64,000 bases of DNA from the IMG/VR virus record IMGVR_UViG_3300033145_001136, positions 38,948 to 102,947 of that record. One strand, 5' to 3'. Both the position numbers and the translations under genes were made by a program. This document shows positions 11,209 to 37,709 of this stretch, one piece after another. The first letter of the stretch is position 1; every line of letters begins with the position of its first letter. Source of the DNA: a virus. Under the pieces are notes generated by a model. That model had not been told where the DNA came from. It saw nothing but the letters and a program-made list of their open reading frames with translations, and searched no databases.

Positions 11209-11650
11209 CGAACTCTCCCTTTGCATTGGTTTTCCATCGATAATCACAGATAAGGCATCGCCAAAAAGCACCACCCATCTTTAACCCCGCAGCATGCCTA
11301 ATTTTACCTGATCCACAACCAGGTCGCTGGCAACGTGGGTCAAGAATCGGATTCGGGAACGGTGGGCGCGTTTTATGAACCTCATTGGCTTCGTCTACAC
11401 CCCCAGGGGCAGCAGACAAATCTGGCAAAGCTCCATCAGTAACAGGCTCCGGGTTCCCGTCAAGATTTGTTAGGGAGCTTACTTCAGCTTCTTGATTCGG
11501 CAGAGTATTGAGATCTACCTGTTCGTCGACGCCCTCTTCTCCTTGTTTCACTTTACATGCAAAACATAATTTAATATTCGGAGCAAATTTCGTCACCGTT
11601 AACGAAATCCCACAATCAGCACATTTAATTATCTTAGTCTCTTTAGCCAT
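11201..11650 (-). CDS. Zinc-finger protein
   Basis: N-terminal CADC...CFAC finger, acidic linker, C-terminal CQRPGC...CLIC. Confidence 0.65.
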   Translation of the reverse strand: MAKETKIIKCADCGISLTVTKFAPNIKLCFACKVKQGEEGVDEQVDLNTLPNQEAEVSSLTNLDGNPEPVTDGALPDLSAAPGGVDEANEVHKTRPPFPNPILDPRCQRPGCGSGKIRHAAGLKMGGAFWRCLICDYRWKTNAKGEFVD

Positions 11651-12335: not shown

Positions 12336-12428
12336 GTTTAAATCCTCTGCTAAGACATACGCCCATCCACTCTGAGCGTTTATTGGCTTTGCAGAAATTT
12401 TAAATAAAGTATAGAATGATGCCATATA

Positions 12429-15400
12429 CTACGAGCAACCGGTACTCGTCCCACAATGTCTACATATGTAGCACGTTCCTTGCTTTTCCATTTCCATTCC
12501 ACAATCTGAACATATCTGCGTATCCTCCCATCCATCAACATTCTGTTCTAGCTCATTCACAGACATGTCCCCATTACCATTCGTTAAGTCCACGTCAAAC
12601 CATATGGCTAAACATTTAACAATATAGTCAACCAATGACTTAGCAATTGGGATGTCTTTATTCTTAGTAAATCCCGATGGCTCAAATCTGATGTTAGATA
12701 ATTTTCTGAGAGTGATATCTAATGGCACACCAAATTGTAGCCCTATTGACCACAATATACCAATTGTTTCCATTAATCCAGAAATTGTGGACCCCACTTT
12801 TGCCATTACAATAAAGATTTCTCCTGGCCTACCATCAGGGTATCTGCCTACCTTCAAATATCCTTTGTGATTTGCCACCACAAATTTATGTCGTATCATA
12901 TTATCTGATGTATCTGGTAATTTTTCTCTTGTTGGTTTAATCACACCTATCTTCGGTTCCATGTCTACATCCATTGCGTGCGGCACTGTCTTTATTGATT
13001 TTTTGCTTTCGACTGTCACTGGTTGTATCTTCTTACTCTGGTCTCGATATATAGCCAAGGATTTCAGCCCCAACTTCCATCCTTCCATATATAGGTTGTA
13101 AATGTCGTCCACTGTCGCAGTATTTGGTAAATTTACTGTGTTGTGGCTGATGATCCCATTTGCAGCATAGCTATGTGTCTCAGGCACAGACAAATCATAA
13201 ACAAGCTGTGCCTCTGACTGGCGTACGTCAACAACAGGAACGTAAATATACTCTACGATCTCCGGGTTAAACTCAAATTCAATACGAGTCGCCACGTCTA
13301 AAAACGTACTCATCCTAATCATCCTGGTCCTACTATCAAACATGTTTCTAAATTCTTGTGTCTTATGCAAAAACCTAATCTTATCCAACAACTCAAGACG
13401 AATATTGTGGAATGGGAACTTGTTTACATTTATCCCATTAGATAATTCCCGAGCACGGGTACGCTTATGTTCCTCAAACCAAGTTAAAAGTTTCCCGGCA
13501 TCCCTAGCCTGATGCCTAGACACATGTAATACCGGGTAGTTTACCTCTCTTACGACATTGTCAGTCATGTAGGTTTGTATCCCAAGATTTGTCCAAATCA
13601 TTTGAACATCACGTAAGAGTCCATCCCTCCTCTGACACAATCTAAGAGACGATCCGACATACGAATCTAGGTATAATCCAGAAAGGTAGGCTAAGCAAAC
13701 GCCTCTTGAAGAACCTAGTATAATAGAGGGGACACACTCTTTGGTAAACCCAATATGGTCTAAGAACTCAACAAGTCCCTTGGACCCAACTAATATACAG
13801 TGGACCCCAGTCCGTGCGTCCACCTTATCATAGGCCTGTAATCCAAACAAACTGGAGAACAGCTCCAAGGCCCTAGTACGAACCTCAGGGTTATTTTTCG
13901 TAATTCCGACCACGTAATTAGATCTGATAACATGCCCATCAGCCGTCAACATACCAAGAAATGTGGCAAGATCCTCCGTCATACGATCAGGAAAGATAAC
14001 CCCCTTGTGTTGAGTACCATATATAGAAGCCGGTACAAACTCAATTGTCTGATTACTCCCCCATACATCTTGGCCCAGGGAAACCGCTGCCATATCTCCA
14101 GGCTCAAGCTCATCAAGAGACTTCCAATAGAGGCTATCTTGCCCAGCAACCAAGATCTTGTGACCCCCAGTCCCAACGAGTCTGCGCCCATCGTTCAATG
14201 TAACAGCAACCGTCTCTCTAACTCCGTTATAATAAGTTTCCGCCGCTATGTTTAATCCCCCGCGCCCAGAGACTGGAAGATTAAGAGAATCAAACGAGTC
14301 CTCAACCATCTCCCCTCCGTAGATTTCCCCAATACGCTTCATACCATCCGCTGTATTGACGATTGTATCCCCCGAAACACATTTCGAAATACCACCGGAG
14401 AGATATGGTTGCACTGCCGCCATCATCTTAATGTGGCCCTCCGGAAATATTTGATTATCACCCAATGCCGTAGCAAAGATGGGGGCCTCATCCGGCAATA
14501 CCCAATTGGATATGTTATCACCCATAGTAAGCGCTTTCATAGTCTCACTGATCATAACATCGTCATATCCTAGATCGTCAAGAATATATGAGATGTCACG
14601 ATTAACCATACTTATAATCCCACCGCCTATTAATTTCTTTTTCTTTACTAGTGCAATATCCGGCTCAATGCCAGTAGTCTCACAGTCCATCATAAAAGAA
14701 ATTGTGCCTGCGGGCGCTAATACGGTTACTTGTGCATTGCGAAAGCCACCTATGTGCATGGGTAACATGTCATAATATGCGCTTAATTCCGACAATATTT
14801 CTGGGTCCACATATTTGCCATACTCAGGTACATTATGTTGGAAGGCACCTGCGTGTAACCCCATTACATTTGCGTATGATCGCTTGCACTGTTCATATGC
14901 TGGAAATGCGCCCAGTACCTTTGCCAACTCCATGGATTGCATTAGTGCATGTACGTGCATCGTCGCCGTTATTACCGCCGCTGTCGCGCGTGCTTCGGGC
15001 GAATCGTATGGCATCAATTTACGCATTAATAACGAACCGAGATTCGTATAGCCCAATCCAATTGGCCTATATTTCAAAGAATTATGTGCGATTTTGTCAG
15101 TAGGATATCCCGCGAGGTTAATAATGATATCCTGCGCGATTATCATAATCCGTACAGTATGTGCAAAATCATGCATTTCTAGCAATTTTTCCGGGTGCCA
15201 AAATTTCATTAGATTAAGTGAAGCCAGGTTACATGCAGAATCGTCTACAAAAGCGAACTCGGCACAATTATGTACCATATAGCCATTTGCATAGAAATGA
15301 TGAACATCGTCCACAACAAAATCATAAACATCTTCTTCTACACCAGTGTCAATAACTTCCTTTACTTTTATCTCCCATCTATCGTGCCCATAATTATCAA

Positions 15401-17396
15401 CAGGATGTGCCATTATTTTGGATAGCAGTTCAGCCTTATGCCTACTTAACATAAATGGGATCATATCCCTTGCAAGTCGTCTAAGACTGTCTCCATTTAT
15501 GATTAATTCCCAATATTTGTGGCTATTTTCAAACCCACCTTTTGGCCTTTTTCTATAGTATAGTTTACTTATAACATTCCTACCAAGTAGCGCAATATGT
15601 AAATCATTTAATAAATCAAATGATGCGGACCCAAACCTAATATTTACATCCTTCCCCACTCTAAAATTGCATGTACCGTCTGCGCTAAAATATCCCGCCA
15701 AAAACGCATAAAATTCGTCATTGGGTAGTCTCATTATCTCGGGACCAAGCCTCTTCGTTCTGGCCTTCCCAGAATATCCCAATCTCAAAAATCGCGCATG
15801 GTACGCCTTTCGTGCAACCCTTAGATTCCACGGTGGCTCACCCACACTACCACTACTTTGTTTAATGTCGTTGGTTGGCAACCCCTCTGTTTTTAAAAAT
15901 TTAACATATTGACCAAGCGCATATTTGTCGTCTTTACCGAAGCACATCCCGACCAGATAGCTTTTGAATAAGGGACTATTATGTTTTTTAGTTTGTGCCA
16001 CCCATCCATCGCCTAGAGCAAATCCATAGAATCTAAGAAAATCAATGGACTCCCCAGACCGCTCAGAATGTATCGTATCAACCAAGTTATGTGGTGATAG
16101 GTTATCAGATTCCATAAGGTTAGCAGCCTCAATCCATCCCCTATTTGTTTTTATTGGGTGATTGCCGGTCACCTTTATTACGCCGCCAATAGACGTTTTT
16201 ATATGGAATATTCGTTTGCGCCCAGTTTTGATCAACTTGGCTAATTTTGGCCCTTGTTCTGTAGTAAGCATAATCTCTGTGGAATCAAGTAACTCATCTA
16301 CTCGTACACATCCATCTGGCGTAAGAACCCACGTATCCCCAGTAACACAGGGGTTACAACTATTAATGCGCTCAATCTCTCGAACCGGGTTATATTCATT
16401 AATAGTTGTATCATATTGTATCCCAGGATCGCCACATTCCCATGCCGCCTCTGCCATTTGCCGCAATATATCTCTTGCCCGCACCATTTTCACTATCCAT
16501 GATGCATCTTGCTCTTTGCGCGACATCAAAGCCCATTCCCCGTCCGATATGGCAGCCTGCATAAACGCATCTGTTACACGTACCGAATGGTTAGCATTCT
16601 GGAAATATAGATTTTTGTATACCAGTCCTTCTAAATCACCGTCATGCCCCATTTCAATAAGATCATGTGCCTTGCGCTCTTCAAGCGGTTTGCACCAAAT
16701 AAATTCTTCTATATCAGGGTGATCTGCCTCTAAAATGCGCATACATGCGGCTTTTCTGCTCGTAGTCCCCGACTTTATTACACCCGCAAATGCGTCATAC
16801 CCTTTCATAAATGGGACCGGGCCAACAGCCAGACTTTTGTGTGAAATCATCTCATGGGATGATCGAATGGGTGATAGATTCGTCCCAGAACCCCCACCTT
16901 GCTTAAAAATCATTCCTTCTGTTTTTGCTAGCTCAAGGATAGACTCCATGGAATCTTCCACACTGTTGATAAAACACGCAGATAAAATTGACTTAGAATT
17001 GCTCTTTACACCAAGATTAAACCATACCGGACTATTAAAGGAGGCTCGTTGGTCTAGTAGGATATAGGTTAGTTCATCACGAAATGCAAAACTCTCTTGA
17101 TCGGTTGTGAAATAGCCATGTTTAACGCCACCTTGCACAATGGTATCCACTACCCGCTTTACCATCTGTGCCACAGAGATTTCTCGCTCTGGTGTATCTT
17201 GCGCACCACTGAAATATTTTTGTGCAACTATATTTACTGCGGTCTGCGACCAACTTTCTGGCACCCTTACATCGTCTTGCTCAAAAACGATTGTCCCATC
17301 TACTTTTGCAATCTCCGCCCGTACTTCTTTCCATGGGAATTGACTAACTACCGGTACATTTTCCTCCGTAAAGACACGCGTTACCTGCAGTCCCAT
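12429..17396 (-). CDS. nrdJ: Class II (adenosylcobalamin-dependent) ribonucleotide reductase with two inteins
   Basis: FNSPVWFN, SACFI, GGGSG, NPC/AE active site, CNLASLNL, RPIGLG, LAPAGTI, ISK/TVN, C-terminal TSCPD-type domain and terminal zinc ribbon ending GCS. Confidence 0.95.
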   Translation of the reverse strand: MGLQVTRVFTEENVPVVSQFPWKEVRAEIAKVDGTIVFEQDDVRVPESWSQTAVNIVAQKYFSGAQDTPEREISVAQMVKRVVDTIVQGGVKHGYFTTDQESFAFRDELTYILLDQRASFNSPVWFNLGVKSNSKSILSACFINSVEDSMESILELAKTEGMIFKQGGGSGTNLSPIRSSHEMISHKSLAVGPVPFMKGYDAFAGVIKSGTTSRKAACMRILEADHPDIEEFIWCKPLEERKAHDLIEMGHDGDLEGLVYKNLYFQNANHSVRVTDAFMQAAISDGEWALMSRKEQDASWIVKMVRARDILRQMAEAAWECGDPGIQYDTTINEYNPVREIERINSCNPCVTGDTWVLTPDGCVRVDELLDSTEIMLTTEQGPKLAKLIKTGRKRIFHIKTSIGGVIKVTGNHPIKTNRGWIEAANLMESDNLSPHNLVDTIHSERSGESIDFLRFYGFALGDGWVAQTKKHNSPLFKSYLVGMCFGKDDKYALGQYVKFLKTEGLPTNDIKQSSGSVGEPPWNLRVARKAYHARFLRLGYSGKARTKRLGPEIMRLPNDEFYAFLAGYFSADGTCNFRVGKDVNIRFGSASFDLLNDLHIALLGRNVISKLYYRKRPKGGFENSHKYWELIINGDSLRRLARDMIPFMLSRHKAELLSKIMAHPVDNYGHDRWEIKVKEVIDTGVEEDVYDFVVDDVHHFYANGYMVHNCAEFAFVDDSACNLASLNLMKFWHPEKLLEMHDFAHTVRIMIIAQDIIINLAGYPTDKIAHNSLKYRPIGLGYTNLGSLLMRKLMPYDSPEARATAAVITATMHVHALMQSMELAKVLGAFPAYEQCKRSYANVMGLHAGAFQHNVPEYGKYVDPEILSELSAYYDMLPMHIGGFRNAQVTVLAPAGTISFMMDCETTGIEPDIALVKKKKLIGGGIISMVNRDISYILDDLGYDDVMISETMKALTMGDNISNWVLPDEAPIFATALGDNQIFPEGHIKMMAAVQPYLSGGISKCVSGDTIVNTADGMKRIGEIYGGEMVEDSFDSLNLPVSGRGGLNIAAETYYNGVRETVAVTLNDGRRLVGTGGHKILVAGQDSLYWKSLDELEPGDMAAVSLGQDVWGSNQTIEFVPASIYGTQHKGVIFPDRMTEDLATFLGMLTADGHVIRSNYVVGITKNNPEVRTRALELFSSLFGLQAYDKVDARTGVHCILVGSKGLVEFLDHIGFTKECVPSIILGSSRGVCLAYLSGLYLDSYVGSSLRLCQRRDGLLRDVQMIWTNLGIQTYMTDNVVREVNYPVLHVSRHQARDAGKLLTWFEEHKRTRARELSNGINVNKFPFHNIRLELLDKIRFLHKTQEFRNMFDSRTRMIRMSTFLDVATRIEFEFNPEIVEYIYVPVVDVRQSEAQLVYDLSVPETHSYAANGIISHNTVNLPNTATVDDIYNLYMEGWKLGLKSLAIYRDQSKKIQPVTVESKKSIKTVPHAMDVDMEPKIGVIKPTREKLPDTSDNMIRHKFVVANHKGYLKVGRYPDGRPGEIFIVMAKVGSTISGLMETIGILWSIGLQFGVPLDITLRKLSNIRFEPSGFTKNKDIPIAKSLVDYIVKCLAIWFDVDLTNGNGDMSVNELEQNVDGWEDTQICSDCGMEMEKQGTCYICRHCGTSTGCS
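13140..14381 (-). mobile_element. Intein 2 in NrdJ (414 aa) with LAGLIDADG homing endonuclease
   Basis: Starts CVSGDT after GGISK, ends IISHN before T(VNLP); FLGMLTADG and YLSGLYLDS blocks. Confidence 0.92.
15267..16349 (-). mobile_element. Intein 1 in NrdJ (361 aa) with LAGLIDADG homing endonuclease
   Basis: Starts CVTGDT after NSCNP, TGNH block B, FYGFALGDG and FLAGYFSADG, ends YMVHN before catalytic C(AE). Confidence 0.93.
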
Positions 17397-17410
17397 AATA
17401 TAAAGCTCCT

Positions 17411-17935
17411 CTATTTGCCTGTACTACCAAATCCTTTATCACCACGATCTGTTTGTGGTAATGTATTAACAGCACGTACCTTTATCCCACGAACTCGACG
17501 CATCATTATTAGCTGAAACAGTCTGTCTCCATTACATATTTCTATGGCCTCATTTGTATGGTTGTGGAGATATGACATCAATTCGCCTGTGTAGCCTTCG
17601 TCAATGATCCCGGTCAAAACAGAAACCCCTCGCACACCAGTCGATGAACGACCAACAATTCTACCCCAGCAATTTCTAGGAAGTTTTATATGTACTCCTG
17701 TACTTACGTCGATTGTTCCACGTGGTGGGAGAATAATTCTACCTTCTGGAATCCAACATTTTAGATCTATTCCACAATCACCAGAATATTTAAATCCTAA
17801 TCCCCTGTGTGATTCTGGTAAGCCATAAGCATATTTGATTTTGAGACATACACCTGGAGCTCGAATAAGTAATCTTATGAGGAGTATACTATTCAGGCTC
17901 GTCAGGAAGTAAAGAACCAGCGTCAGCATATCCAT
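17411..17935 (-). CDS. dut: Trimeric dUTPase-family protein with hydrophobic N-terminal extension
   Basis: GDCGIDL, GRSS, GIIDEGYTGE, GDRLFQL, RGDKGFGSTG (motifs I-V); start uncertain (17929-17992). Confidence 0.9.
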   Translation of the reverse strand: MDMLTLVLYFLTSLNSILLIRLLIRAPGVCLKIKYAYGLPESHRGLGFKYSGDCGIDLKCWIPEGRIILPPRGTIDVSTGVHIKLPRNCWGRIVGRSSTGVRGVSVLTGIIDEGYTGELMSYLHNHTNEAIEICNGDRLFQLIMMRRVRGIKVRAVNTLPQTDRGDKGFGSTGK

Positions 17936-18434
17936 CATCTGCTCCATTGCTATTAATCGATGTTGCGTCACGTAACTGAGAAACCAATTCATACAAATAT
18001 TCCGGCAGGGTATCTGCTGTCGCCTTTATATCGGCATATACATTTGCATATACAGAAACCGACCCGGGCACAACCAACGCGATATTGCTAATAATTTTGT
18101 GTTCAAAATTCTGTAGATATTCGGCACTCGATATCAATAACTCTATTGGCGTCCCAATAGATAACCTTGATGGATTAGTGAAATTGAGAATAACTATGTC
18201 TGCTTCCAATACCGCTGCTCTATTTATTTCTGCTATATAATTACTAACTTGCACACTTGTTGGTGGGCCATTTAATTTATATGGACGATCTGGTAAAAAG
18301 ATACAATATCCAACTCCCAATTTCTCACACACCACTTCAATGAGTTCCATTACCTCACCCTGTGATATACCAGCATGAATCTCTGGTGGGCAGTCAATCG
18401 GCCCACCAAGATAAAAATTAATTGCCATATCCAT
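17889..18434 (-). CDS. Nucleoside 2-deoxyribosyltransferase / dNMP N-hydrolase family protein
   Basis: FYLGGPI, INRAAVLEADIVI, SIGTPIEL (catalytic Glu position). Confidence 0.7.
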   Translation of the reverse strand: MDMAINFYLGGPIDCPPEIHAGISQGEVMELIEVVCEKLGVGYCIFLPDRPYKLNGPPTSVQVSNYIAEINRAAVLEADIVILNFTNPSRLSIGTPIELLISSAEYLQNFEHKIISNIALVVPGSVSVYANVYADIKATADTLPEYLYELVSQLRDATSINSNGADDGYADAGSLLPDEPE

Positions 18435-18436
18435 AA

Positions 18437-19081
18437 TTATGTTCTCCTATGGCGGAATTTCTTAAGTTGCGCAGTCATTTCTTGTCTAATCATGGTGGCG
18501 ATTGGCTGAATACCACCAGCCGATAGTTCTTGCTTCGTACTGTGTATAAATTTACAATATGGTAAGGTATCTTGGATCGTTAGATAAATTGTACCCGTAC
18601 CTGTAAATGTAGTAGCTGTAGGATACTCTTCCCGTATCGCCGCAATAGTCTCAACACATCTAGCAGTATCTGCAACAATACGCTTATTAACGCTGTCCGT
18701 GGTCATATCATATATGTCACGACCACGTGCAAGACATCGCTTAAGTAAAATTTCTCTCTGACATTGAAAATCAACGCACACATCGATTTCAATGTCATTG
18801 TCTTTTAAGAATTGGACCTGTTCTGCTGTACGTGGAAATCCATCCAAGATGATCATTTTATTACTGTTCTCTTCCATCATTCGTAACACAGTATTTCTTA
18901 TAATCTCCTCTGCTGGATGCAATTCCCCCTCTGCAAGTGCTGCATCTGCTTCGTCTGACTCAATGGTTCTAGCTATATCGCCAGAAGAAATATGTGCAAA
19001 TTCATCAGTCTGCTTAACAATTTCTCTAGCATATGACGACGTACCGCTTCCTGTCGGACCTACAAATGTAATAACGATCAT
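18437..19081 (-). CDS. Adenylate kinase / NMP kinase family protein
   Basis: GPTGSGTS P-loop variant, HISSGDIAR, ILDGFPRTAEQ, short lid RGR..D. Confidence 0.85.
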   Translation of the reverse strand: MIVITFVGPTGSGTSSYAREIVKQTDEFAHISSGDIARTIESDEADAALAEGELHPAEEIIRNTVLRMMEENSNKMIILDGFPRTAEQVQFLKDNDIEIDVCVDFQCQREILLKRCLARGRDIYDMTTDSVNKRIVADTARCVETIAAIREEYPTATTFTGTGTIYLTIQDTLPYCKFIHSTKQELSAGGIQPIATMIRQEMTAQLKKFRHRRT

Positions 19082-19083
19082 TG

Positions 19084-20151
19084 TTATTCCTCTCTTGGCA
19101 TCGAAACTTTATTTCCTGGTTGAGCTTCGTTAGGGATTTCACCCCTATAATCAAATGCATGAACAAACCCACCACGAATAATATTGAGCATTTCAAAGTC
19201 AGCAACAAAATCACTTATCATACAAAGTTCATTGGTAAGGTTTGTATTTGATATTGTTAAGTTGTCAGAATTTATTGTTACCGGGATTCCAAAATCTAAC
19301 ATATATCTAAGTGGAAACGCGTGCTTGTATTTTACCGATCCCGTGTGAAAAGATGAAGACGGGCATAATTCAATTGGCGCGCCATAATCTCGCAATAATC
19401 GCATAATTCCTTTGTCATCCACTGCTCTATAACAATGTCCCAATCGATCCGGTTCAAGAGCTTCCACTGCTTCACCAATCATGTATGCCGGACAATTTTC
19501 TCCTATGTGAAAAGTCGCCTTCATCCCGCATCCCCTAGCCATAGAAAAGGCTTCATGAAATAATTTAGGAGAAATCGCTTCGTATCCTGCAGCATCAAAC
19601 CCAACTACAAACTTATCCATTAATTGTGTTCTGTGACTAAATACCTCGTCAAGCATATGTGTGGCTACTTTGGGCCCTTCCTGTCGCATAGCGATAACAA
19701 TAGCTCTACCGGTGATGTCGTCAAACATATCCCCTACCATCGCTAATCCCTCACATACCGCATTTACTGTATCTGCGACACCAAGTCCACGTCGCATATG
19801 TAGAGTTGGCGCAAATCTCAATTCAAAATATGTAACATTATCTTTTTTTAGTTGTTGACCTATGTTTATTACGCTATCCCGCAATAAATCGTATGTCTGA
19901 GTTATCCACAGTGGATAAAAGAAACAATCCAAATATTCTAATAACGTATTAGCATTTGCCGCAGATAGTTTTGCTCGTAATCGTCCAACATCTTGTAATT
20001 CTGGTGGCAGTATAACTCCTTCACCCATGTGCTCCACTTCTTTAGACAAGTGCACCATAAATTCCGGCTCTATTGATCCATCCAAGTGCAAATGTAATTC
20101 TGCTTTTGGAATTTGCCGTATTGTTTTATACCACTTATGATAATCCCTCAT
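19084..20151 (-). CDS. add: Adenosine/AMP deaminase family protein
   Basis: KAELHLHLDGS, YFELRFAP, FHIGE, RLGH, ELCPSS, TINSDN. Confidence 0.92.
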   Translation of the reverse strand: MRDYHKWYKTIRQIPKAELHLHLDGSIEPEFMVHLSKEVEHMGEGVILPPELQDVGRLRAKLSAANANTLLEYLDCFFYPLWITQTYDLLRDSVINIGQQLKKDNVTYFELRFAPTLHMRRGLGVADTVNAVCEGLAMVGDMFDDITGRAIVIAMRQEGPKVATHMLDEVFSHRTQLMDKFVVGFDAAGYEAISPKLFHEAFSMARGCGMKATFHIGENCPAYMIGEAVEALEPDRLGHCYRAVDDKGIMRLLRDYGAPIELCPSSSFHTGSVKYKHAFPLRYMLDFGIPVTINSDNLTISNTNLTNELCMISDFVADFEMLNIIRGGFVHAFDYRGEIPNEAQPGNKVSMPREE

Positions 20152-22916
20152 CCTCCCTCCTGACTACCTGGTATCATAGCGTCTATAATAAGTGGATCTG
20201 TCACTTCGTTTGTTATCTCGCTATCCGATGTCGATGTTTCCACAACAAGCGAATCTATCTCTTCAAATTGCAGAGTACCTGGCATGTCATATTCACCATT
20301 GTCGTATAACACCCGGAGTGTGTCCCCCATTTTCCCATATCTGTGCTTATCTATGGTAATTATAACATTGCCGAACTGCAAGCCTCGTTTTTTAACGATT
20401 GAATCTGGAATCTTCTTTAGTGCGATTTGTTTATCTGCATCTGCCCCCATCCCCTTTGCTCCAGCTAGTTTATATGTGGACTGTTTCATCGCATCTTGGT
20501 CATTTTCTGGTGGTTTTAACTGCTGTATCAATGTGATACTTATTTCACAATCTCGTTTCTCAGCCCTATTCTTTAAAATGGCTGTGGCTCGCTTTAGTAC
20601 CTCCCATCCCTGTGTGGTATCACGCAATCTCTCCGGGACCAATAACTGCATATAATCAATCCAGAAGTATTCGCAACCATTTTCATAGTATTCTTTATCT
20701 ATCAGCGACAACCACGATGTAATTGTCATCTCCCTTGGTCTTAAAATACGTAATTTGCCTTGTGCATATATATCTCGCACTGCCTTTACTTTGTCCATTT
20801 GTTCCACTGTTAATTGGCCAGACCTCAGTGGTGTTAGTGGAACGCCTGCGTGTTGTGCCCACATACGATATATTAGCTCTCTAGGAGGCATTTCTCCAGA
20901 GATAAACGACACCCCCACCTGTTCCTCTGCTGGGGCCAAAACCGCCATATTTTTACACACATCTACCGCAAAGGCTGTTTTGCCCACACCGAATGGGGCG
21001 GCCACATAAAATAATTGCCCCTTTTCAATCCCCTGTAATATGCGTGTTAATTTAGGCCAGTTTTCTCCCAAACTTACTCCAACTATGTCTTTACCCATAT
21101 GTTGTCGTTCTAACAATACCTCAAATGCCTCATCTGCCTGATCCAGTGGATTAGAACTTCCACTAAATCGATCTATCATACCAACATTAGTCATCTCAAG
21201 CTTGTGCTGTACCACTATATCTATAAGTTCTGTAGATAGATCTGTCGCTGCAGCAGTAAGCCGCTCTGATGATATTTTTGCTTTCCTCCTACTTGACAGA
21301 TCTATCAATTTCTCTATTGCAGACTCTATATCTACTTCATAATCATCTGCCAAACTGCGGACATAATCTGCAACCCCTGATTGTTCTATTCGATCAAAAT
21401 GTTCGCTAATAGCATCCTTAGCAATTGGAGATTCTGTGCGATATTTCTTTACTATTATGTTGAAAATTTCTATGTGCCTATTTAAATAAAAATCATCTTC
21501 TCGTAAATCAAGGATTGCTTTTGCTGCCGCTTTTTTGTCTATCATCATCGCAGTTATGACTTGTTTTTCTAGTCCAGTAGCCCGCAAATGTGCGTCGTCG
21601 CTTGTTACATTTTCCGATAACCAGTCCTTAATCAATAATGCCTCTATGTCGAGCTTTGTGGCAAGAAGGCCAATCGCGAGCTCTAGCTCCAGCCCACCGA
21701 AAACAGCTACTTGTTCACCAACTTTGGCCAAGAATTCTAATTTGTTCGTAATAGTTTCTATCGGTTCATCTGTTAGATATGCATCGATGAAAAATTCTAC
21801 CGGATGTGTCGCTGATTCAATAAGCCCCATAAATATGTCTGGGCCATTATCTTTAATAAAGCTGTCTGGATCGTCTTCCACCATGTGTGCAATCCGCACC
21901 AATGGTGGAAATGTCAATTTTCGCATAGACTCAACTAAATTAGCTGCCGACTCCAATCCTCCCTTATCACCATCTGGGCACCATATAAACTCCCTAACCT
22001 TTAATTTAGTCATTTCGTCCAAATGTTCTTGTCGTATACTTGTTCCTCGTAAGCCCACAACATTCTTAATCCCACGACTATGTGCCATCAGTACATCGTG
22101 CACTCCCTCCACACCAATAAGCTGATGTCCTGTTTTTAATAAGTTTCGCCTGGCAATATGTGACCCATATAAAAAGTTGTTATACTTTCGTAAAGGATGC
22201 TTGTTTGAGAATCCCTTGTATTTCCAATCGTCAACCCCTATGCGCGTTATTTGAAAATCAACAATGAAATCCCCGCTAATCCCTTGGGCCGTGGCGTAAT
22301 GTGGATACACCAATACTTCACGAAATCGCTCTGGTATGTTATCTTGTGTACTTCCTGGTATTACTAATTCTAGTTGTATGGCCTCATCATATGACACATC
22401 ATTATTCCGCAGGTGCTCCATTAGGCCTGCCTCGTTACTACACCAGCCAATACCAAAAGCATTTATTGTATCAAGGTCAATCCCCCGAACATCTATTAAA
22501 TGATTATATGCCGCTGCATTTTTTATTAGTTCGGCACTAAAATAATCACCCGCTAATTTCATAATTGTAAAATATCTAAACATCGCCAACTCTGCGGGCG
22601 TTGGCTCCCTATGGTATTTATCTACATCAATTGCAAATTCTGACGCCAAATGTTCTAGAGCTTCAACGTACGTCAATCCATGCATAAACTCTACCCAACT
22701 AATTATATCACCCTGTGCCTTACACCCAAAACAATAATATCCATTTGATTCGTGATATACTGTCAACGATGGAGTTTTCTTATCTTGATGAAATGGGCAC
22801 ATAAATTTTGTATATGACGAGGTCTCAAGACATGGGGCCAGGTCTTGTCCCATATACTCCACCAGCGGGATCGCGCTCTTTACAACATCTCTAAGTTGAT
22901 TTGTTTCAATAAGCAT
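20148..22916 (-). CDS. Fused DnaG primase - DnaB helicase
   Basis: CPFH...CFGC zinc finger, TOPRIM EGVHD and DGDKGG, DPD; DnaB N-domain (DFY..RH..IF) and helicase core AAPFGVGKT, SGEM, IDYMQL, KHRYG. Confidence 0.93.
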   Translation of the reverse strand: MLIETNQLRDVVKSAIPLVEYMGQDLAPCLETSSYTKFMCPFHQDKKTPSLTVYHESNGYYCFGCKAQGDIISWVEFMHGLTYVEALEHLASEFAIDVDKYHREPTPAELAMFRYFTIMKLAGDYFSAELIKNAAAYNHLIDVRGIDLDTINAFGIGWCSNEAGLMEHLRNNDVSYDEAIQLELVIPGSTQDNIPERFREVLVYPHYATAQGISGDFIVDFQITRIGVDDWKYKGFSNKHPLRKYNNFLYGSHIARRNLLKTGHQLIGVEGVHDVLMAHSRGIKNVVGLRGTSIRQEHLDEMTKLKVREFIWCPDGDKGGLESAANLVESMRKLTFPPLVRIAHMVEDDPDSFIKDNGPDIFMGLIESATHPVEFFIDAYLTDEPIETITNKLEFLAKVGEQVAVFGGLELELAIGLLATKLDIEALLIKDWLSENVTSDDAHLRATGLEKQVITAMMIDKKAAAKAILDLREDDFYLNRHIEIFNIIVKKYRTESPIAKDAISEHFDRIEQSGVADYVRSLADDYEVDIESAIEKLIDLSSRRKAKISSERLTAAATDLSTELIDIVVQHKLEMTNVGMIDRFSGSSNPLDQADEAFEVLLERQHMGKDIVGVSLGENWPKLTRILQGIEKGQLFYVAAPFGVGKTAFAVDVCKNMAVLAPAEEQVGVSFISGEMPPRELIYRMWAQHAGVPLTPLRSGQLTVEQMDKVKAVRDIYAQGKLRILRPREMTITSWLSLIDKEYYENGCEYFWIDYMQLLVPERLRDTTQGWEVLKRATAILKNRAEKRDCEISITLIQQLKPPENDQDAMKQSTYKLAGAKGMGADADKQIALKKIPDSIVKKRGLQFGNVIITIDKHRYGKMGDTLRVLYDNGEYDMPGTLQFEEIDSLVVETSTSDSEITNEVTDPLIIDAMIPGSQEGG

Positions 22917-23605
22917 TATATATCGCGCCTCAGTATTCTCAATTCATCTTTTTTGATTTTCCATTCATCCAGCTCGTCCTGTACTTGGTCCGGATCAAGT
23001 ATCAAAGTCTGCTCCTGCTTTATTTTCTTAACTGGCGCATCATAGATTTGTTGCATACGCCTGTCTTCAACTTTTTCTCGCTGTATAGCCCCATTTAGTA
23101 TGCTTCTCCAGTAACCATAGTGTCGTTTATCCATTGCGACTTTATCTAATGCCTCGAAAGAATCATTAAAGACTTCTTGAGGATGTGTTTGTGCAAGCTC
23201 AACCAAATCTTGTAATTGATCTCTAGAAATGTCCTGGGTAAGATATTCGGTTAGCCCTGAATATAGGTGTGTCGTACAAGCAGTCCACTTTGGGTCTGGG
23301 AATTGACGATAGTCAGGCCTCTTACCATATTTGTTTTTAAATATCTGATAATAATATTTATTAAAACTATGAAAAATTTTAGAGGTCTCTGATGCCCTAG
23401 GCGCAAATTCATCAACCACATTTAACATAGCCACCGGGTAGAAACTATAAGCCAGTTTCTCTACTTCTATGAGATCATATTCTGGCTGTTGATCTGGTAA
23501 AACCCATTCAAGCCACCTAGTCAGAACTCTCCTGGCCGGTGTGCTCATCACTAAGGGAAGTGCTGCGATTCTCTCTGTGATCAAGTCGTCGTCGTGCTTC
23601 TGCAA
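22916..23605 (-). CDS. Hypothetical protein (possible replication accessory factor)
   Basis: 229 aa, stop abuts the primase start; function inferred from position only. Confidence 0.6.
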   Translation of the reverse strand: MQKHDDDLITERIAALPLVMSTPARRVLTRWLEWVLPDQQPEYDLIEVEKLAYSFYPVAMLNVVDEFAPRASETSKIFHSFNKYYYQIFKNKYGKRPDYRQFPDPKWTACTTHLYSGLTEYLTQDISRDQLQDLVELAQTHPQEVFNDSFEALDKVAMDKRHYGYWRSILNGAIQREKVEDRRMQQIYDAPVKKIKQEQTLILDPDQVQDELDEWKIKKDELRILRRDI

Positions 23606-26600
23606 GTCTTTTCTTCTCCTCGTCTGTTTCTATCAATTCTTCAAACTTGTTAAGCCATTCCCTAGCTGCAGCAAACTTATCTAACTGCTGAAAGGCCAGT
23701 AAACCAAGGTTCCACAATACGGCTTTATCGTCCTTGGTGATGGTATTATAGAACCGCTCATACCATTCGTATGCTTCCTGATTCATTTCTTGTCTATGAA
23801 GAAAAGAAGCATAATCTTTAATATTGAGCGCCACCATTTCTGGTTCTGGAATATCGGTCATCTCAGCCGCCCGCAAAAAGCATCTCTTAGCCTCTTCTAT
23901 TTCGTATCGCTCTTCATGGATGAGCCCAAGATTATGCCACTCTGTATAATCAATACGATCTTCCGGGAAAGCATAGATCTGTTCTAGCAAATGGTCCACC
24001 TTGAAATTCACTTTTTGTTTTGTGTGCATTAGCGCCATCATGACCATGTTAGTAATCGATGATTCTCCATCGCGTCTTTCGTAATCTATCTCTGCCTCTA
24101 TGGCCCTAAGAAGCAAGGCCTGTAAATCATCCCCACGCTTATGCATTTTTTTATATTCTTTAATCCGACCCTCTGCAATGGCATAATTCTTATCCGCAAT
24201 GTCTACCTTAAGCTGCAATACAACCGCATCAAATTCATCAGTACTATTGTCTATCACATCCTGAATCAATGCACGTACTTCATCAACCCTGCCACATAAT
24301 AGGGCCGCTTCTACATATCGTCTTCGCAACATAGGATCATCTATCACATCTTCAATTGCCCTACCTAACAACTCAAATGCTCTCTCTAAATTACCCTGTC
24401 GCACCATTAGTGTTGACAAATTCACAAGCACAAGTGAATCATTTGGTGCAATGGCATAGGCCGTTTCAAGGTGGTGCAGTGCTTTTTCAGCATTGTTGTG
24501 ATGGTCCATATAGTACGCCGCTAAGTTAAGGTGCGGTTCTATAGCATCTGGCTCAAGCTCTAGAGTTTGTTCATAGTAACCTCTGGCCTTTTCCCAATCC
24601 TCTCGATGCATGGCAATTAGTCCAAGGTTATTATATATTTGTGGCATATATGGTAATAGTTCTGCGGCTTTCAGAAACAATTTTTCTGCTTTAGTTGGAT
24701 TACTATCAATTACGATATTCGCCAATGCTAAATATGCATCGCCCAGCTTAGGATTAAGTTCTATGGTAGTTTCTAATGCAACTATTGCTTCTTGTACCCT
24801 ATCCTGACGTATTAGGGTAATCCCATAATTATACCATGCATCCGCATAGTCCGGCTTTAATGCGATTGCCTTTTCTAACTGTTCTTGTGCACTACTAACA
24901 TCATTTTTAAATTCCATATATTGTAGAGCTAATTCAAAACATGCCTTTGCATTTTCTGGATCTCCTTCTACCTTCTTTTGGCCAACTCTAATAGATTGGT
25001 CTCCCTTTCCTTTCATACGTTCTGTGTCACGAATCTTACCATAGTGATGTACCAACACATCTACTACTTGAAGAACACGCATCCCCATCTCAAGGGCATG
25101 CGGATCAATTAGTTCGTGATATGGGAACCTCCACATTAATCCTTTTTGTGCTGGATATAGCCGAGTCTTTGTGGAGACGGCATAACCAGGACATCCCTTT
25201 GTATAAAATTCTGAATACTTCGGATCTGTCGGGAGCCACCGAGCCGCACCGCGCCCACGATAATAATTTGCCGTCTGTATCTGATACACCGATTCGTGCT
25301 CTAACACACGCGCACAAAGATGTCGCAGTGCCTGCATATCCTCGTTTGATATCGTCTCGTCCGCATCAACACACAGATGCCAGTCTACCATATCATCTAT
25401 TAAGGATTGAGCATAATTTCTGGCCTTTGCAAAGTCTTCGTCAAAATCTTCCACCATATCCTTCTGCGTCACTATTAACTTATCTCCAATTTCCGGATCA
25501 TTTTTAAGCCTTAAAAGAATATCCATAGTCTTATCGGTAGACCCCGTATCCACAACTACCATTCTATGTAAATGTGGAATGTGTTGTCGTACAAGTTGCT
25601 CTACATACTCTTCTTCATCCTTTACAATGGCAGCAACCCCAAGCCTAAGCCCAGATATATCTGTTGGACCCATGACATCTATTGCTCTAACGCTTTTACC
25701 TACTATAGTCGATTTACCACTTGCGCTATCTATTTCAGCCGCTTTATCAATATATTTCTGCGCTTCGATCTCCCTGTCTTGCGACCGTAAATGTACTGCA
25801 TAGTTAATTAAGTTTGTTACATTAGTGTCATCTACTTCTATTGCCTTAATGAACCATTCGTCTGCAGCCGTAAAGTCTTCATCAGCATGATACGCAACCG
25901 CCATCGCACCATAATATGTCGGCTTCTCCGGATTTCGTTCAATCAGTTCCGTAAGTTCAGCTATTATATCTTTACCTCGTAAGTTACCAGCAACAATAAT
26001 TTTATATCGTAGGTCATCTAGTGGGACATGCGCATATGCACAATTGTAATATTGCACAGCCATCGGGCCATTTCCTGAGATCGCGTATAAGTCACCATAA
26101 TCCTCAAATGCTTTCTCTTTAGTAGCTTCGTCCACCTCATCAATATATACACCTTCTGGCGCTGCGCCAATAACATATGCATCGTGCGCATCTGCAAACG
26201 TGTTACCAATAACAACTCTACACCATACTACGCGCACACCAGAATCCTCTTCATCCATGTCAAATCCGACAGATCGCAAAATAAGGTTTTCTGTAGCATC
26301 TAATTTTTCTACTGTCTGTGAAACATATTCCGGGATATTGGCGTAATCTGGCCATGCCAGATTAACAATTGTAAACGCTTCTGGACCGAATCGCTGCAAC
26401 CCCATTTGCATCATTGATTTATATTGCAAACCAATTGACACATTCTCGGTCATAAACGACACACCCGCAATTCCTTTTATCCTTTGTAAATATTCAATAT
26501 ATTCCCTATTATACACCCCGATGAGGATTGTCCCCTTGAGTTTACGTATAAATGTTTCCGCCTCTGCTATTTCAAAATCTTTTGGTATTAATATAAGATA

Positions 26601-34432: not shown

Positions 34433-34623
34433 TCCATTCCTCCTGTTTCCGTAATATTCGCCCAAAGATCTATTCTGATCCGCTTTTGCAGTTCTTTGGC
34501 TTCTTCTATCAATTCCTCTGGATCATCTGTGGATACCTCATGCTCTACCCACATACTAAAATCTTCTGATTGATAATTCCCTCTATTTATCTTTGCGCTT
34601 GCAGATGCACCGATCTTACCCAT
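34429..34623 (-). CDS. Small hypothetical phage protein
   Basis: MGKIGASASAKINRGNYQSE..., overlaps both neighbours. Confidence 0.6.
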   Translation of the reverse strand: MGKIGASASAKINRGNYQSEDFSMWVEHEVSTDDPEELIEEAKELQKRIRIDLWANITETGGME

Positions 34624-35701
34624 TAAAAATTCCCCTATCAATAAAGTGATCGTAAAACGGCCCTGTACCGACCCATCCAACCACACATTCGGGATACCGT
34701 GCTTCTATATCCTCGATAAATGATTGGACCTCAATCGTCAAGGCATCCCATTCCTGTATGCTATAATTGGCCCAATCAATATAATCTACAAAATTAAGAC
34801 ATATGGCCTGCGGCCTATTTATAGCCATAGCTTTGTCCATGTCTTCAATTGACCATGTAAATATGCGCCTAATCTTTTTAGTTACGGTCGTTTTCTCACT
34901 TAATGATTCAGGAGAGCCAGACATTTTTGTGATTTGCTTCCATGTTAGTTCTTTCCCACCTGTAGGCCCCGAATTTCCACCGACTCGAATCGGAAACGTT
35001 CTAGCAACCCCAAACACATTTCTCGCCACCCTTGGAGAAAGCCCCGCCTCCATTAACCAATTAGATGCGTTCGTGTCTCTGGAAGTACAGAATGGCCACC
35101 ACTGGGTATGATGTAGACTTAGTCCCATGCCCTGCGTCCCCTCCAACAAAATAGGCTTGTTATCATCAACCGCCTGGTTTAAAAAGGCTTCAGTATCTAT
35201 TAAATATGGCTCAAGCCAATCACAATCTTTGGCAAATTTTAGATCTTGTCTACGCCATACCTTATCAGACAATGCCGCACCACATCCCTCACGCGTACTA
35301 CCAATACGATCAGACATGTCTTGATCTTTATCGCCCTTAGCATGTTCTGCATTGATGTGTTTTTGTTCGATAATCATTGCATAGTGATCAATCCATAATC
35401 TATCTTCTACAGGCGTATTGGCCTCTGTAAGCCAATCAATCTCTTTGGAAAGCTGTGATTCAATAATCATAGCGGCTCGCCCAATAACCAACTCGCTTGT
35501 TGTTGCTTCCATCGCACCACATGGGATTGTTTGAAAAGCATGTTGTTGTGATCGATCTGGCGTCCACACCTTATGTCCAGCATTTGGGGCACCGGTTCTA
35601 ACGTGGATCGCATAATTCTTCGCAATCCTCTCAACCAGTCTACCCTTCCCCTCAGAACCATATTGTAATCCAACTACTATGTCTACACACTGATTGGGCA
35701 T
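34616..35701 (-). CDS. purZ: Adenylosuccinate synthetase superfamily, PurZ/PurZ0 type (putative 2-amino-2'-deoxyadenylosuccinate synthase)
   Basis: QYGSEGKG (Ser at the PurA catalytic Asp), NAGH, IGST..GCG, LEGTQG, RTFPIRVGGNSGP, TTVTKKIRR, NFVD; short ~360 aa archaeal/PurZ-like length. Confidence 0.8.
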   Translation of the reverse strand: MPNQCVDIVVGLQYGSEGKGRLVERIAKNYAIHVRTGAPNAGHKVWTPDRSQQHAFQTIPCGAMEATTSELVIGRAAMIIESQLSKEIDWLTEANTPVEDRLWIDHYAMIIEQKHINAEHAKGDKDQDMSDRIGSTREGCGAALSDKVWRRQDLKFAKDCDWLEPYLIDTEAFLNQAVDDNKPILLEGTQGMGLSLHHTQWWPFCTSRDTNASNWLMEAGLSPRVARNVFGVARTFPIRVGGNSGPTGGKELTWKQITKMSGSPESLSEKTTVTKKIRRIFTWSIEDMDKAMAINRPQAICLNFVDYIDWANYSIQEWDALTIEVQSFIEDIEARYPECVVGWVGTGPFYDHFIDRGIFNG

Positions 35702-35782
35702 TATAATACTCCCTCGCAAAGTCCAGCTATTTATGTTCGCTGAGAAAATATTGGTCGAAAATATGTCAGGAAGAAATTTTTA

Positions 35783-37183
35783 TTATTTCAACACCTCTAA
35801 AATTGCGGCTTCATCCCTGAACAACGCAGTATATTCCACCATATATTCCCGCATTTCCGCAACAAATTCGTTCAAATCTAACCCCTGCGTAGCAAATCTT
35901 TCGCGCAAATATGCTGAATCCACCATTGCAAGCCATAACCCGCCACACTTTTCTATATCAAGTGGAAAATCATTTTTTATAAATTCATAAACTTCTTCTC
36001 TACCAAACCCACGCTTAGTTAATAGATTCAGCATATAATATGACCAATGCCCTGCTTGTATGTGATATGTCTCTATATTATCTTGTATCCGCTCAGTATC
36101 GACGTCTATCGTTTTTATTACTTTGGTCATGCTTGTTAGCATATGTAGTATTGTATGATATGAATCTTCTATTATTACTCTTTCTGTAGACGAATGTGAA
36201 ATATCTCTCTCGTGCCAAAGCTGCGTATTATCGAGTGTGACCATTGTGTATGATTTCATTAGTCGATGCATACCACATATTCTTTCACACGTAATTGGAT
36301 TCTTTTTATGTGGCATGGCTGACGACCCAGATGATGCTGATGGCCTTGCCTCTAATATCTCTGCTACCTCTGTGCGATGTAGGTGCCTAATTTCCATCGC
36401 TAGTTGCGCCAATATAGAAGACAGACCTGCCAGCATTGTTGATCTGCCATATTGTATCATTCTTGGCAATATTTGATCGGTTGCTTGCCACACTTCAAAG
36501 GGATAGTGTATAGACACATCATATTTTCTCCCTAGGGCTAATTTCATAAATGTGTCTTTTGCTTGTTTTTCCATGTCTCTTGTAATAAACTCATGGCAAC
36601 CCATTGGGCCACTAGCCTTAAAATAAAATTCTTGACCGTCAAACGCACCAGCGATTTTCTTAAGTAGATAATAGTATTTAAACAATTTGTGTGTTAATGT
36701 AATATATGCTCCATGGACACCATGTGTACGTCCCGACATTGGCTGACCAGCATATTGTATTATTTTATTCTCCAATATATGTATTAAATTATCTAATTCG
36801 CAAGCAACCACCCACGTCGAGTACGCCGATTGTATTTCTTGTACAGAATCAACCACATCAGATGATGTGGCCCCCCAATGTAACAAATTTCTTATATGAT
36901 CAGGTAGTTTGCCCATTAGCGCCAAATCGAGTACATTTATAAATGCCATGACATCGTGCTCAGTACGCTGTTCCTCTATGTGAATTCGTTCCACTAATTT
37001 ATTAGTATAGTCTGAATTATCTAAAAGCCCATGGCATAATCCAATTATAGCGTGCTCATTTATGTGGTCGTCTGATTTTGTAATAGTAGCCAACATAGCC
37101 ATTTCGTATGTGGTAGCTAACTCCCATTTTATTTGGTCGCCCCATATTGTTTCTATCCTCGAATCCATGTATCTATCAATCAT
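35783..37183 (-). CDS. purB: Adenylosuccinate lyase
   Basis: MIDRY, TEHDVMAF, HWGATSSDVVD, GRTHG, GSSAMPHKKNP, WHERDISHSSTER. Confidence 0.95.
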   Translation of the reverse strand: MIDRYMDSRIETIWGDQIKWELATTYEMAMLATITKSDDHINEHAIIGLCHGLLDNSDYTNKLVERIHIEEQRTEHDVMAFINVLDLALMGKLPDHIRNLLHWGATSSDVVDSVQEIQSAYSTWVVACELDNLIHILENKIIQYAGQPMSGRTHGVHGAYITLTHKLFKYYYLLKKIAGAFDGQEFYFKASGPMGCHEFITRDMEKQAKDTFMKLALGRKYDVSIHYPFEVWQATDQILPRMIQYGRSTMLAGLSSILAQLAMEIRHLHRTEVAEILEARPSASSGSSAMPHKKNPITCERICGMHRLMKSYTMVTLDNTQLWHERDISHSSTERVIIEDSYHTILHMLTSMTKVIKTIDVDTERIQDNIETYHIQAGHWSYYMLNLLTKRGFGREEVYEFIKNDFPLDIEKCGGLWLAMVDSAYLRERFATQGLDLNEFVAEMREYMVEYTALFRDEAAILEVLK

Positions 37184-37709
37184 TGTCACCCTCCAAGACA
37201 TAGAATACCACATCCGATGGTGGTAGAAGTAATGCTTTAGCCGGATTTTCATCCGGATACCCAACTGGAATTATACTTATTGGTCGCAACCAAGTTGGTA
37301 ATCCAAGTATACCTTCCACCTGAATTTCATCGAATGCCCCAATCCAACACGCTCCTAATCCCATATCGTGGATTGCTAGTAACCCATTCTGTATTGCTGC
37401 CGCCGCATCAAGAAGCGCATAAAGAGAACTACCACGTACGCCATACTTTGCCGCACTACGCTGCAAATCGGCGCACACAACTATCACTAATGGTGCGTCT
37501 CCTATGAACATCTGTTTAAGGCTGGCCTCTGCCAGCTCTCTTTGTATGCGTTTGTTAGTTACAAAAACAAATCTACGACTTTGTAAATTCCCCGCACTAG
37601 GGGCAATCATCATAGCCTCTAAAATTTGTTCAACGTCTTCATCAGCGATTGGATTATTTGTGAATTTCCTAATACTTCTACGCGAATTTGCCAGTTCGAT
37701 AAAGCTCAT
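37176..37709 (-). CDS. Nitroreductase family flavoprotein
   Basis: RRSIRKF, APSAGNLQ, LGACWIGAF, IIPVGYP. Confidence 0.92.
   Translation of the reverse strand: MSFIELANSRRSIRKFTNNPIADEDVEQILEAMMIAPSAGNLQSRRFVFVTNKRIQRELAEASLKQMFIGDAPLVIVVCADLQRSAAKYGVRGSSLYALLDAAAAIQNGLLAIHDMGLGACWIGAFDEIQVEGILGLPTWLRPISIIPVGYPDENPAKALLLPPSDVVFYVLEGDND

Follow-up and report, generated by a model that had tools for sequence, protein, structure and literature searches.

A candidate adenine-exclusion and dZ-supply gene cluster in the replication operon of a large, uncultured, probable Z-genome phage

Introduction

How might a phage with a 2-aminoadenine (Z) genome keep adenine out of its DNA when neither DatZ nor MazZ can be recognized among its genes? 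The question is raised by a cluster of four genes in a 64,000-nucleotide stretch of virus DNA (hereafter the window), which is the final 64 kb of the 102,947-bp IMG/VR virus record IMGVR_UViG_3300033145_001136 (CheckV completeness 66%). The four genes encode an apparent adenosine deaminase (ADA), a nucleoside monophosphate (NMP) kinase, a 181-aa orphan of probable nucleoside 2-deoxyribosyltransferase (NDT) fold, and a dUTPase-fold protein. We favor, with moderate confidence, the view that the cluster is an adenine-exclusion and dZ-supply module of a probable Z-genome phage, and its last two genes are most likely the counterparts of the published DutZ/DmtZ pair. From the observed gene identities, residue conservation, nearest relatives, and synteny, we infer both the Z genome and every substrate proposed below.

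PurZ0 phages use DutZ and DmtZ instead of DatZ and MazZ (Poubanne et al., NAR 2026, PMC12884076). DutZ is a dUTPase-fold diphosphatase that converts dATP, dGTP, and dUTP to their monophosphates, and DmtZ, of the NDT/DNPH1 superfamily, is an NDT-fold dAMP N-hydrolase/transferase that releases adenine from dAMP (PMC12884076). They are gp55 and gp53, respectively, of Gordonia phage Ghobes, and the C-terminal and N-terminal domains of gp53 of Arthrobacter phage Wayne; dutZ was found in 98 of 98 PurZ0 genomes and dmtZ in 85, with the two fused in 77, and both are restricted to PurZ0 genomes (PMC12884076). Yang et al. (bioRxiv 10.1101/2025.10.22.683976) independently made a similar suggestion from metagenomic association. 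The original prediction for the window had proposed that an N-hydrolase and a re-specified dUTPase replace DatZ and MazZ by an undescribed route. The replacement itself gains from our finding that the dUTPase is nearest to DutZ and that the orphan has a probable NDT fold and DmtZ residues, but the route had already been published (PMC12884076). What is new is the deaminase and the kinase, neither of which has been reported for Z phages in the literature searched (genes of this kind occur in neither Poubanne et al. nor Yang et al.), and the setting, an unrelated phage of large size that uses DnaE and carries a synthetase belonging by descent to neither PurZ0 nor PurZ.

Results

A dUTPase-fold gene nearest to DutZ

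All four open reading frames (ORFs) of the cluster were confirmed at the coordinates originally given, on the minus strand:

19084..20151, minus strand: predicted adenosine/deoxyadenosine deaminase, bacterial Add type, 355 aa (PF00962, E = 2.6e-56)
18437..19081, minus strand: short-LID NMP kinase of the adenylate-kinase/UMP-CMP-kinase family, 214 aa (PF00406 ADK, E = 1.5e-15; AAA_17, E = 6e-16)
17889..18434, minus strand: NDT-fold, DmtZ-like protein, putative dAMP N-glycosidase/deoxyribose-5-phosphate transferase, 181 aa (ESM Atlas NDT clusters)
17411..17992, minus strand: dUTPase-fold, DutZ-like protein, putative dATP/dGTP/dUTP diphosphatase (PF00692, E = 1.7e-26)

The PF00692 domain starts at residue 68 of the last ORF and spans profile positions 9–129 of 129. 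Translation and alignment with Ghobes DutZ, to which the protein is 34% identical (E = 2e-17), show that all five conserved dUTPase motifs are present. Among the 1180 phage records with a tblastn match, the top ~120 ranks were occupied entirely by PurZ0 actinophages (infecting Microbacterium, Arthrobacter, and Micrococcus), at 38–45% identity, and the first ordinary phage dUTPases in the ranking were at most 37% identical to the window protein. A 15-row maximum-likelihood tree contains a 99/99 split that joins the window dUTPase with five DutZ sequences and the dUTPases of a Curtobacterium phage and a Moorella phage, leaving seven ordinary dUTPases on the other side. Seven of the eight members on the DutZ side, the Curtobacterium phage included, come from phages encoding a PurA-family gene. 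The evidence that the window dUTPase groups with DutZ rather than with ordinary phage dUTPases is thus good but not conclusive.

No ATG, GTG, or TTG lies between the stop codon of the NDT-like gene (TAG, 17891–17889) and the start of the dUTPase domain, so the dUTPase probably starts inside the NDT-like gene, at ATG 17938 or 17929; its reading frame stays open across the final 100 nt of that gene. Initiation at either codon would give the dUTPase a hydrophobic 30-aa leader. Alternatively, a +1 shift at GAA-TAG would fuse the NDT tail to the dUTPase, as in Wayne. A sequencing indel near the NDT stop may also account for the unusual start.

An orphan protein of probable NDT fold with DmtZ residues

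Searches of the 181-aa ORF against Pfam, NCBIfam, and PHROG came back empty, even with the threshold relaxed to E = 10, and tblastn against phages returned nothing at E ≤ 1. The ESM Atlas placed it among viral nucleoside 2-deoxyribosyltransferase clusters (feature score 0.93, 203 shared features). The Atlas model, with a predicted template-modeling score (pTM) of 0.72, matched these clusters with TM scores of 0.58–0.65 by query and 0.44–0.77 by target, the range by target being 0.69–0.77 for stand-alone NDT-family clusters. One of the matches is a 377-member viral cluster of dUTPase+NDT fusions. An NDT fold is therefore the most likely assignment.

For comparison with DmtZ, Ghobes DmtZ was identified as gp53 by Tyr6, Val11, Asp12, and Gln13. 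The DmtZ side of the hhalign comparison held just three sequences because a homologue search from Ghobes gp53 returned Ghobes alone. In this alignment, itself weak, Y8/P12/D14, P48, N71, and G94-P96-E98 of the window protein align with Y6/P10/D12, P57, N77, and G99-P101-E103 of Ghobes DmtZ, and these positions include the DmtZ catalytic triad (Tyr6/Asn77/Glu103) as well as Asp12 and Pro57. MAFFT agrees except at the Asn, where N65 is chosen instead of N71. In DmtZ, the Asp and Asn replace the Arg and Asp usual in NDT hydrolases (PMC12884076).

The orphan gene adjoins and overlaps the dUTPase frame, a Ser-type PurA homologue lies in the same window, and the gene order, NDT-like then dUTPase-like, is that of the published pair. 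Vibrio phage 1.093.O has a DUF4406 (NDT-clan) gene directly 5′ of its dUTPase gene (MG592467.1 39252–39946, locus L116) and no PurA-family gene, so NDT–dUTPase adjacency is not exclusive to PurZ phages.

A Ser-type PurA homologue beside PurB

Two further genes of the window bear on whether the genome carries Z:

34616..35719, minus strand: Ser-type PurA homologue, a PurZ/PurZ0-like synthetase (likely start Met7, 35701)
35783..37264, minus strand: adenylosuccinate lyase (PurB) homologue (TIGR00928, E = 2.4e-70; PF00206)

The two genes adjoin each other, and Ghobes encodes a PurB too; with the dUTPase-like and NDT-like genes, the Ser-type synthetase and PurB reproduce the Ghobes gene set. A nitroreductase-family flavin mononucleotide (FMN) gene (37176–37709) overlaps the purB start by ~90 nt.

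The synthetase reads GSEGKG where PurA has GDEGKG. Residue roles were taken from those reported for Vibrio phage PurZ (VpPurZ F12, S14, and T262), and at VpPurZ positions 12/14/233/252/262/297/298 the window protein has Y/S/P/W/T/D/Y; the residues at positions 12, 14, 233, 252, and 262 are those that accommodate the 2-amino group or separate PurZ from PurA. Its NFVD-Y stretch places Asp at position 297, as in the GTP-using PurZ0 and in PurA, whereas all five PurZ, which use ATP, have Asn there. The protein scores 222 bits against the PurZ model NF038379 and 242 bits against the archaeal PurA model NF003295, in both cases below the cut-off. A 95-row tree places it within a 99%-supported Ser/Gly-type clade separate from canonical PurA, as a lone long branch among sequences from candidate phyla radiation (CPR) bacteria and DPANN archaea. 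The synthetase thus looks functionally PurZ0-like, and by descent neither PurZ0 nor PurZ. A PurZ scan of IMG/VR gave a single match, at 38% identity, to an unrelated phage (L002) in which a uracil-DNA glycosylase (UDG) domain is fused to the family-A polymerase PolA.

Cellular homologues were collected by a scan of GTDB species genomes (408 confirmed matches, of which 80 were kept). The motif G[S/G]E[G/A]KG occurs in 76 of the 80 and the PurZ0-type pattern at the mapped positions in all 80; in the three bacteria checked, the Ser-type gene was in each case additional to a canonical PurA. With the signature shared by so many cellular homologues, Ser13 alone is not proof of a Z genome. It is the combination of Ser-type synthetase, PurB, DutZ-like, and DmtZ-like genes that leads us to predict a Z genome for this phage as the likely case.

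Ser/Gly-type PurA homologues with the complete PurZ0 signature are widespread in CPR bacteria, DPANN archaea, Dehalococcoidia, Acidobacteriota, and others, and form one clade with PurZ and PurZ0. The four cellular loci examined (L084:3956-8801, L037:3429-8790, L080:5257-7760, and L023:6004-7634) have nucleotide-metabolism genes beside the PurA homologue: DCD/dUTPase-fold genes (L084, L037), P-loop kinases (L084, L080; fused in Methylorubrum), a deoxynucleoside kinase (L084), and a Ham1 ITPase (L023). One kinase neighbor weakly matches the PADLOC "dCTPase" defence model. These loci may represent an uncharacterized cellular cassette connected with how the Z pathway arose.

Z-phage genes not found in the record, and a DnaE polymerase

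The absence of DatZ and MazZ, originally noted for the window, extends to the whole 102,947-bp record, itself 66% complete, in which no HD (PF01966), YfbR-like (PF12917), HD_3 (PF13023), or MazG (PF03819) domain was found; searches for DUF550 (PF04447) and DUF5664 (PF18909), these two run without a positive control, were likewise negative. Neither a family-A polymerase (PolA) nor DpoZ was found in the record. The sole DNA polymerase found in the 103 kb is DnaE (Pol III alpha, with PHP, NTPase, finger, and HHH domains; window 5078–8518), and no probable Z-genome phage with DnaE replication is described in the literature searched. In phage S-2L, a polymerase without Z preference relies on depletion of the dATP pool by DatZ. 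By the same logic, if this DnaE-type polymerase has no preference for Z, thorough and irreversible dATP removal would be needed. The same replication block contains a family-4 UDG (10158–10850; TIGR00758, E = 8e-40).

A nucleoside-type deaminase and an adenylate-kinase-fold kinase

The deaminase scores 195 bits against TIGR01430, under the 216.55-bit cut-off. In an alignment with 16 homologues, H20, H22, D24, H215, E218, H239, and D296 are invariant; apart from D24, these make up the full set of ADA zinc ligands and catalytic residues (H20, H22, H215, D296, E218, and H239). The Asp that follows HxHL in nucleoside-type enzymes is present (HLHLDGS), as in 118 of the 120 nearest homologues and in the Salmonella, Plasmodium, and bovine adenosine deaminases. 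PDB entries 3ou8 and 3rys, which we take to be Pa0148 and AAur1117, both ADA-family adenine deaminases, read HLH[LI]EG, with Glu at the D24 position. We read the window enzyme as nucleoside-type because it has Asp, not Glu, after HxHL and keeps all catalytic residues; identity as an adenine deaminase was rejected on the same Asp, although 3ou8 and 3rys are the best PDB matches by a small margin. The zinc-ligand motif reads DN rather than DD; this was considered as a defect and dismissed, since it is common in the bacterial subfamily (39 of 99 homologues in which the motif was found).

Apart from one relative at 62% identity, on a metagenome contig described below, the nearest relatives of the deaminase are all bacterial, at ≤38%. 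A tblastn search of isolated phage genomes in the phage collection found no genuine ADA; its matches were rejected as phage ADAs because the records are bacterial or contaminated. No paper in the literature searched ties an adenosine deaminase to PurZ phages. The protein looks like an intact adenosine/deoxyadenosine deaminase of bacterial origin, as predicted from its sequence.

The kinase has an ADK fold (TM 0.71–0.73) and keeps the NMP-site motifs GDIAR and GFPRTxxQ.

Locus layout and relatives

The cluster is flanked by two larger genes:

20148..22916, minus strand: DnaG-DnaB primase-helicase fusion (DnaB_C, Zn_ribbon_DnaG, Toprim)
12429..17396, minus strand: class II ribonucleotide reductase NrdJ with inteins (PF02867, E = 5.7e-112; PF08471; TSCPD), the last gene of the run

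Nearly all genes of the window are on the minus strand. The helicase stop and the ADA start overlap by 4 nt, the kinase lies 2 nt from ADA on one side and 2 nt from the NDT-like gene on the other, the NDT-like and dUTPase frames overlap, and 14 nt lie between the dUTPase and NrdJ. The spacing is operon-like, with translational coupling of the genes inside an operon for replication and NrdJ; the original description of four tightly coupled genes between primase-helicase and nrdJ was correct in coordinates and spacing. The 1655-aa NrdJ ORF contains two Intein_splicing stretches, a LAGLIDADG_3 homing endonuclease domain, and a HINT domain.

A metagenome scan yielded one relative of the locus, the 2,010-bp contig Ga0114919_10108886 (locus L006). 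It carries the end of the helicase, a deaminase 62% identical to that of the window, and the first 99 residues of a kinase, 56% identical, within which the contig ends. Order and spacing of helicase, ADA, and kinase are those of the window, so the deaminase–kinase pairing 3′ of the helicase is conserved across substantial divergence. Other searches found no further relatives of the cluster: blastn of window DNA 17000–23000 against the phage collection gave no match, IMG/VR scans with ADA and with the primase-helicase gave no relatives, and a DnaE scan gave loci of ≤32% identity only, none containing the cluster genes.

Elsewhere in the record, structural genes and a glycan/phosphonate cluster were seen, and no further nucleotide enzymes. 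The phage-borne phosphonate/glycan cluster occupies record positions 25500–39400 and window positions 1–1393 and includes a cytidylyltransferase–phosphoenolpyruvate (PEP) mutase fusion, a split phosphonopyruvate decarboxylase, an iron-type alcohol dehydrogenase (Fe-ADH), a TagF-like transferase, a DegT aminotransferase, methyltransferases, and GT2/GT9 glycosyltransferases. A single 4766-aa ORF adjoins the portal gene (record positions 4874–19174). Window positions 38001–40000 have a G+C content of 0.54, compared with ~0.42 elsewhere, and the ORFs there have no Pfam match.

Discussion

A proposed route from adenine to Z

In the route that we propose, dGMP would feed the Ser-type PurA homologue and the phage PurB, giving dZMP. 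The NDT-fold enzyme would split dAMP into adenine and deoxyribose-5-phosphate, and free Z base may serve it as an additional acceptor of the deoxyribose-5-phosphate. Adenine, deoxyribose phosphate, and deoxyadenosine (dA) would be interconverted by phosphorylases, mutases, or nucleotidases of the host, and the substrate of the deaminase could be re-formed from adenine via host phosphorylases or arise from dAMP via nucleotidases. Irreversible conversion of (deoxy)adenosine to (deoxy)inosine would then block the return of adenine to dATP via adenine phosphoribosyltransferase (APRT), ADP, and the phage NrdJ, and the adenine purine would be diverted through hypoxanthine, IMP, GMP, and dGMP to Z. 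The kinase would convert dZMP, or another purine deoxynucleoside monophosphate, to the diphosphate; in known Z phages this phosphorylation depends on host GMP kinase.

A more far-reaching version, which we regard as possible but doubtful, is a nearly host-independent conversion of adenine to Z, in which DutZ- and DmtZ-like enzymes take adenine out of dATP, the deaminase renders the loss irreversible and directs the purine via hypoxanthine and IMP into guanine nucleotides, NrdJ, synthetase, PurB, and a phage dZMP kinase rebuild it as dZTP, and DnaE, with no known preference for Z, copies a Z genome purely because dATP is absent. If true, the lineage would have a third Z-genome toolkit, one assembled independently and the first with a deaminase in adenine exclusion.

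Several observations weigh against reading the cluster as an adenine-exclusion module. The branch of the window dUTPase is long, the tree is small, and the identity margin is modest (44% vs. 37%); the Moorella phage falls on the DutZ side of the split without a PurA-family gene. The assignment of the orphan draws on language-model features, the Atlas model, and a short-motif alignment; phmmer against 1.84e9 representatives retrieved only the query itself, as did a k-mer search, and a single-sequence AF2 model gave a predicted local distance difference test score (pLDDT) of 40. Neither BLASTP (E = 0.23) nor hhalign (E = 0.015, probability 2.9%) finds significant overall similarity to DmtZ.

Neither the PurZ0 clade (100) nor the PurZ clade (100) includes the synthetase, and its signature is common to at least 80 cellular homologues; the "purZ0" label first given to it fits its Ser13, Thr262, and NFVD residues but not its place in the tree. 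The missing third of the genome could hold datZ or mazZ. The kinase departs from the Walker-A consensus GxxGxGK[ST], reading GPTGSGTSS with Thr in place of Lys (codon ACG at 19041–19043, minus strand). The P-loop of the L006 kinase is intact (GPTGCGKSS), and the ACG codon of the window may reflect a mutation that inactivates the kinase, variation within the population, or a mistake in assembly. Finally, an ADA-family enzyme (an adenine deaminase) has been reported to deaminate 2,6-diaminopurine compounds too. ADAs commonly accept such compounds, an activity that could work against Z, and the window deaminase would therefore have to spare Z nucleotides.

Alternative explanations

One alternative, which we consider unlikely, is that the phage has canonical DNA and the cluster performs routine nucleotide housekeeping: the dUTPase would be a true dUTPase acting alongside the family-4 UDG, salvage of host deoxynucleosides and bases would fall to the NDT-like protein and the deaminase, the kinase would be an adenylate kinase or UMP-CMP kinase, and the Ser-type PurA and PurB would have the function of their cellular relatives rather than make Z. 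The synthetase does group with cellular Ser-type homologues, outside PurZ0 and PurZ, and those cellular genes share chromosomes with canonical PurA, but every residue tied to dGMP recognition is present in it. All dUTPase motifs are intact, DutZ enzymes themselves still hydrolyse dUTP, and the UDG is present, as housekeeping would have it; yet the nearest ~120 of the 1180 phage dUTPases are all from PurZ0 phages. Vibrio phage 1.093.O offers a precedent for an NDT-clan gene beside a dUTPase gene where there is no PurA gene, whereas the window orphan, at the two positions where NDT hydrolases usually carry Arg and Asp, keeps the Asp and Asn specific to DmtZ, and Ser-type synthetase, PurB, dUTPase-like, and NDT-like genes occur together as in Ghobes.

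It is improbable that the deaminase, with or without the kinase, is instead a counter-defence or host-takeover enzyme acting on ATP/dATP or on adenosine-containing immune signals, in the way that enzymes with ADA domains in bacterial defence systems act on ATP. The deaminase matches the ADA domain of the PADLOC CARF-ADA (Cad1-type) model (E = 1e-42) and several Cad1-type PDB chains, which indicates that ADA folds acting on nucleotides exist, and ADA is essentially absent from isolated phage genomes by tblastn. However, the CARF-ADA match reflects general family homology, with housekeeping models scoring 195 and 191 bits vs. 145, the deaminase lacks a CARF domain or any other sensor domain, and its coupling to replication and nucleotide genes is conserved in L006.

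A phage purine nucleotide cycle balancing AMP/IMP pools, the alternative raised in the original prediction, places all three of its enzyme families (PurA-like, PurB, and deaminase) within one replication region but is very improbable, since it requires an AMP deaminase and the window protein is short, of Add type, and carries the nucleoside-type Asp, the catalytic Asp13 of true PurA (99% conserved) is missing from the synthetase, and the deaminase lies 14 kb from PurA/PurB, coupled instead to the kinase, NDT-like, and dUTPase genes.

Significance

Z-genome phages withstand many of the restriction systems and other defences that target DNA, and enzymes from these phages are used to produce Z-DNA both in vitro and in cells. 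If the cluster is indeed an adenine-exclusion and dZ-supply module, the DutZ/DmtZ solution would extend beyond small actinobacteriophages to a large, unrelated, uncultured phage with Pol III-type replication and would gain two new parts, a deaminase that could close the adenine salvage loop and a phage NMP kinase that could replace host GMP kinase. The cellular Ser-type PurA homologues beside dUTPase-fold and kinase genes bear on the origin of the Z pathway and warn against calling Z genomes from Ser13 alone.

Comparison with known systems

The proposed outcome, dATP removal and dGMP supply, is the same as that of DatZ and MazZ/DUF550 in PurZ phages (S-2L, phiVC8, and SH-Ab 15497), and the folds and chemistry differ: DatZ is an HD triphosphohydrolase yielding dA, and neither it nor MazZ/DUF550 was detected in the window phage. 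The deaminase resembles bacterial Add in its full zinc and catalytic set, its HxHLDG motif, and its identity of 30–38%; unlike Add, it is phage-encoded in a replication operon, scores below the TIGR01430 cut-off, has one close relative, and carries GHCY rather than GHG after the catalytic His. The kinase shares the short-LID ADK fold, GDIAR, and GFPRTxxQ with the ADK/UMP-CMP kinase family. Host GMP kinase, the known dZMP kinase, performs the step that is needed after dZMP, but guanylate kinase belongs to another family than the window kinase.

Like DmtZ, the orphan has a probable NDT fold, lies directly upstream of a dUTPase-fold gene, and has aligned Tyr/Asp/Pro/Asn/Glu residues, and its acidic C-terminal tail resembles the linker of the fused forms. 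It differs in having no significant similarity to any of the 1.84e9 representatives, and the likeness may reflect shared descent or convergence. The dUTPase has the trimeric dUTPase fold of DutZ, with the motifs GRSS, GxIDxGYxGE, RLxQ, and RGxxGFGSTG, and its gene likewise adjoins an NDT-fold gene, the genome also encoding a Ser-type PurA and a PurB. The carriers differ: the DutZ phages are ~43-kb actinophages with DpoZ, whereas the window phage is large (>103 kb), uncultured, of ~42% GC, and has a DnaE polymerase.

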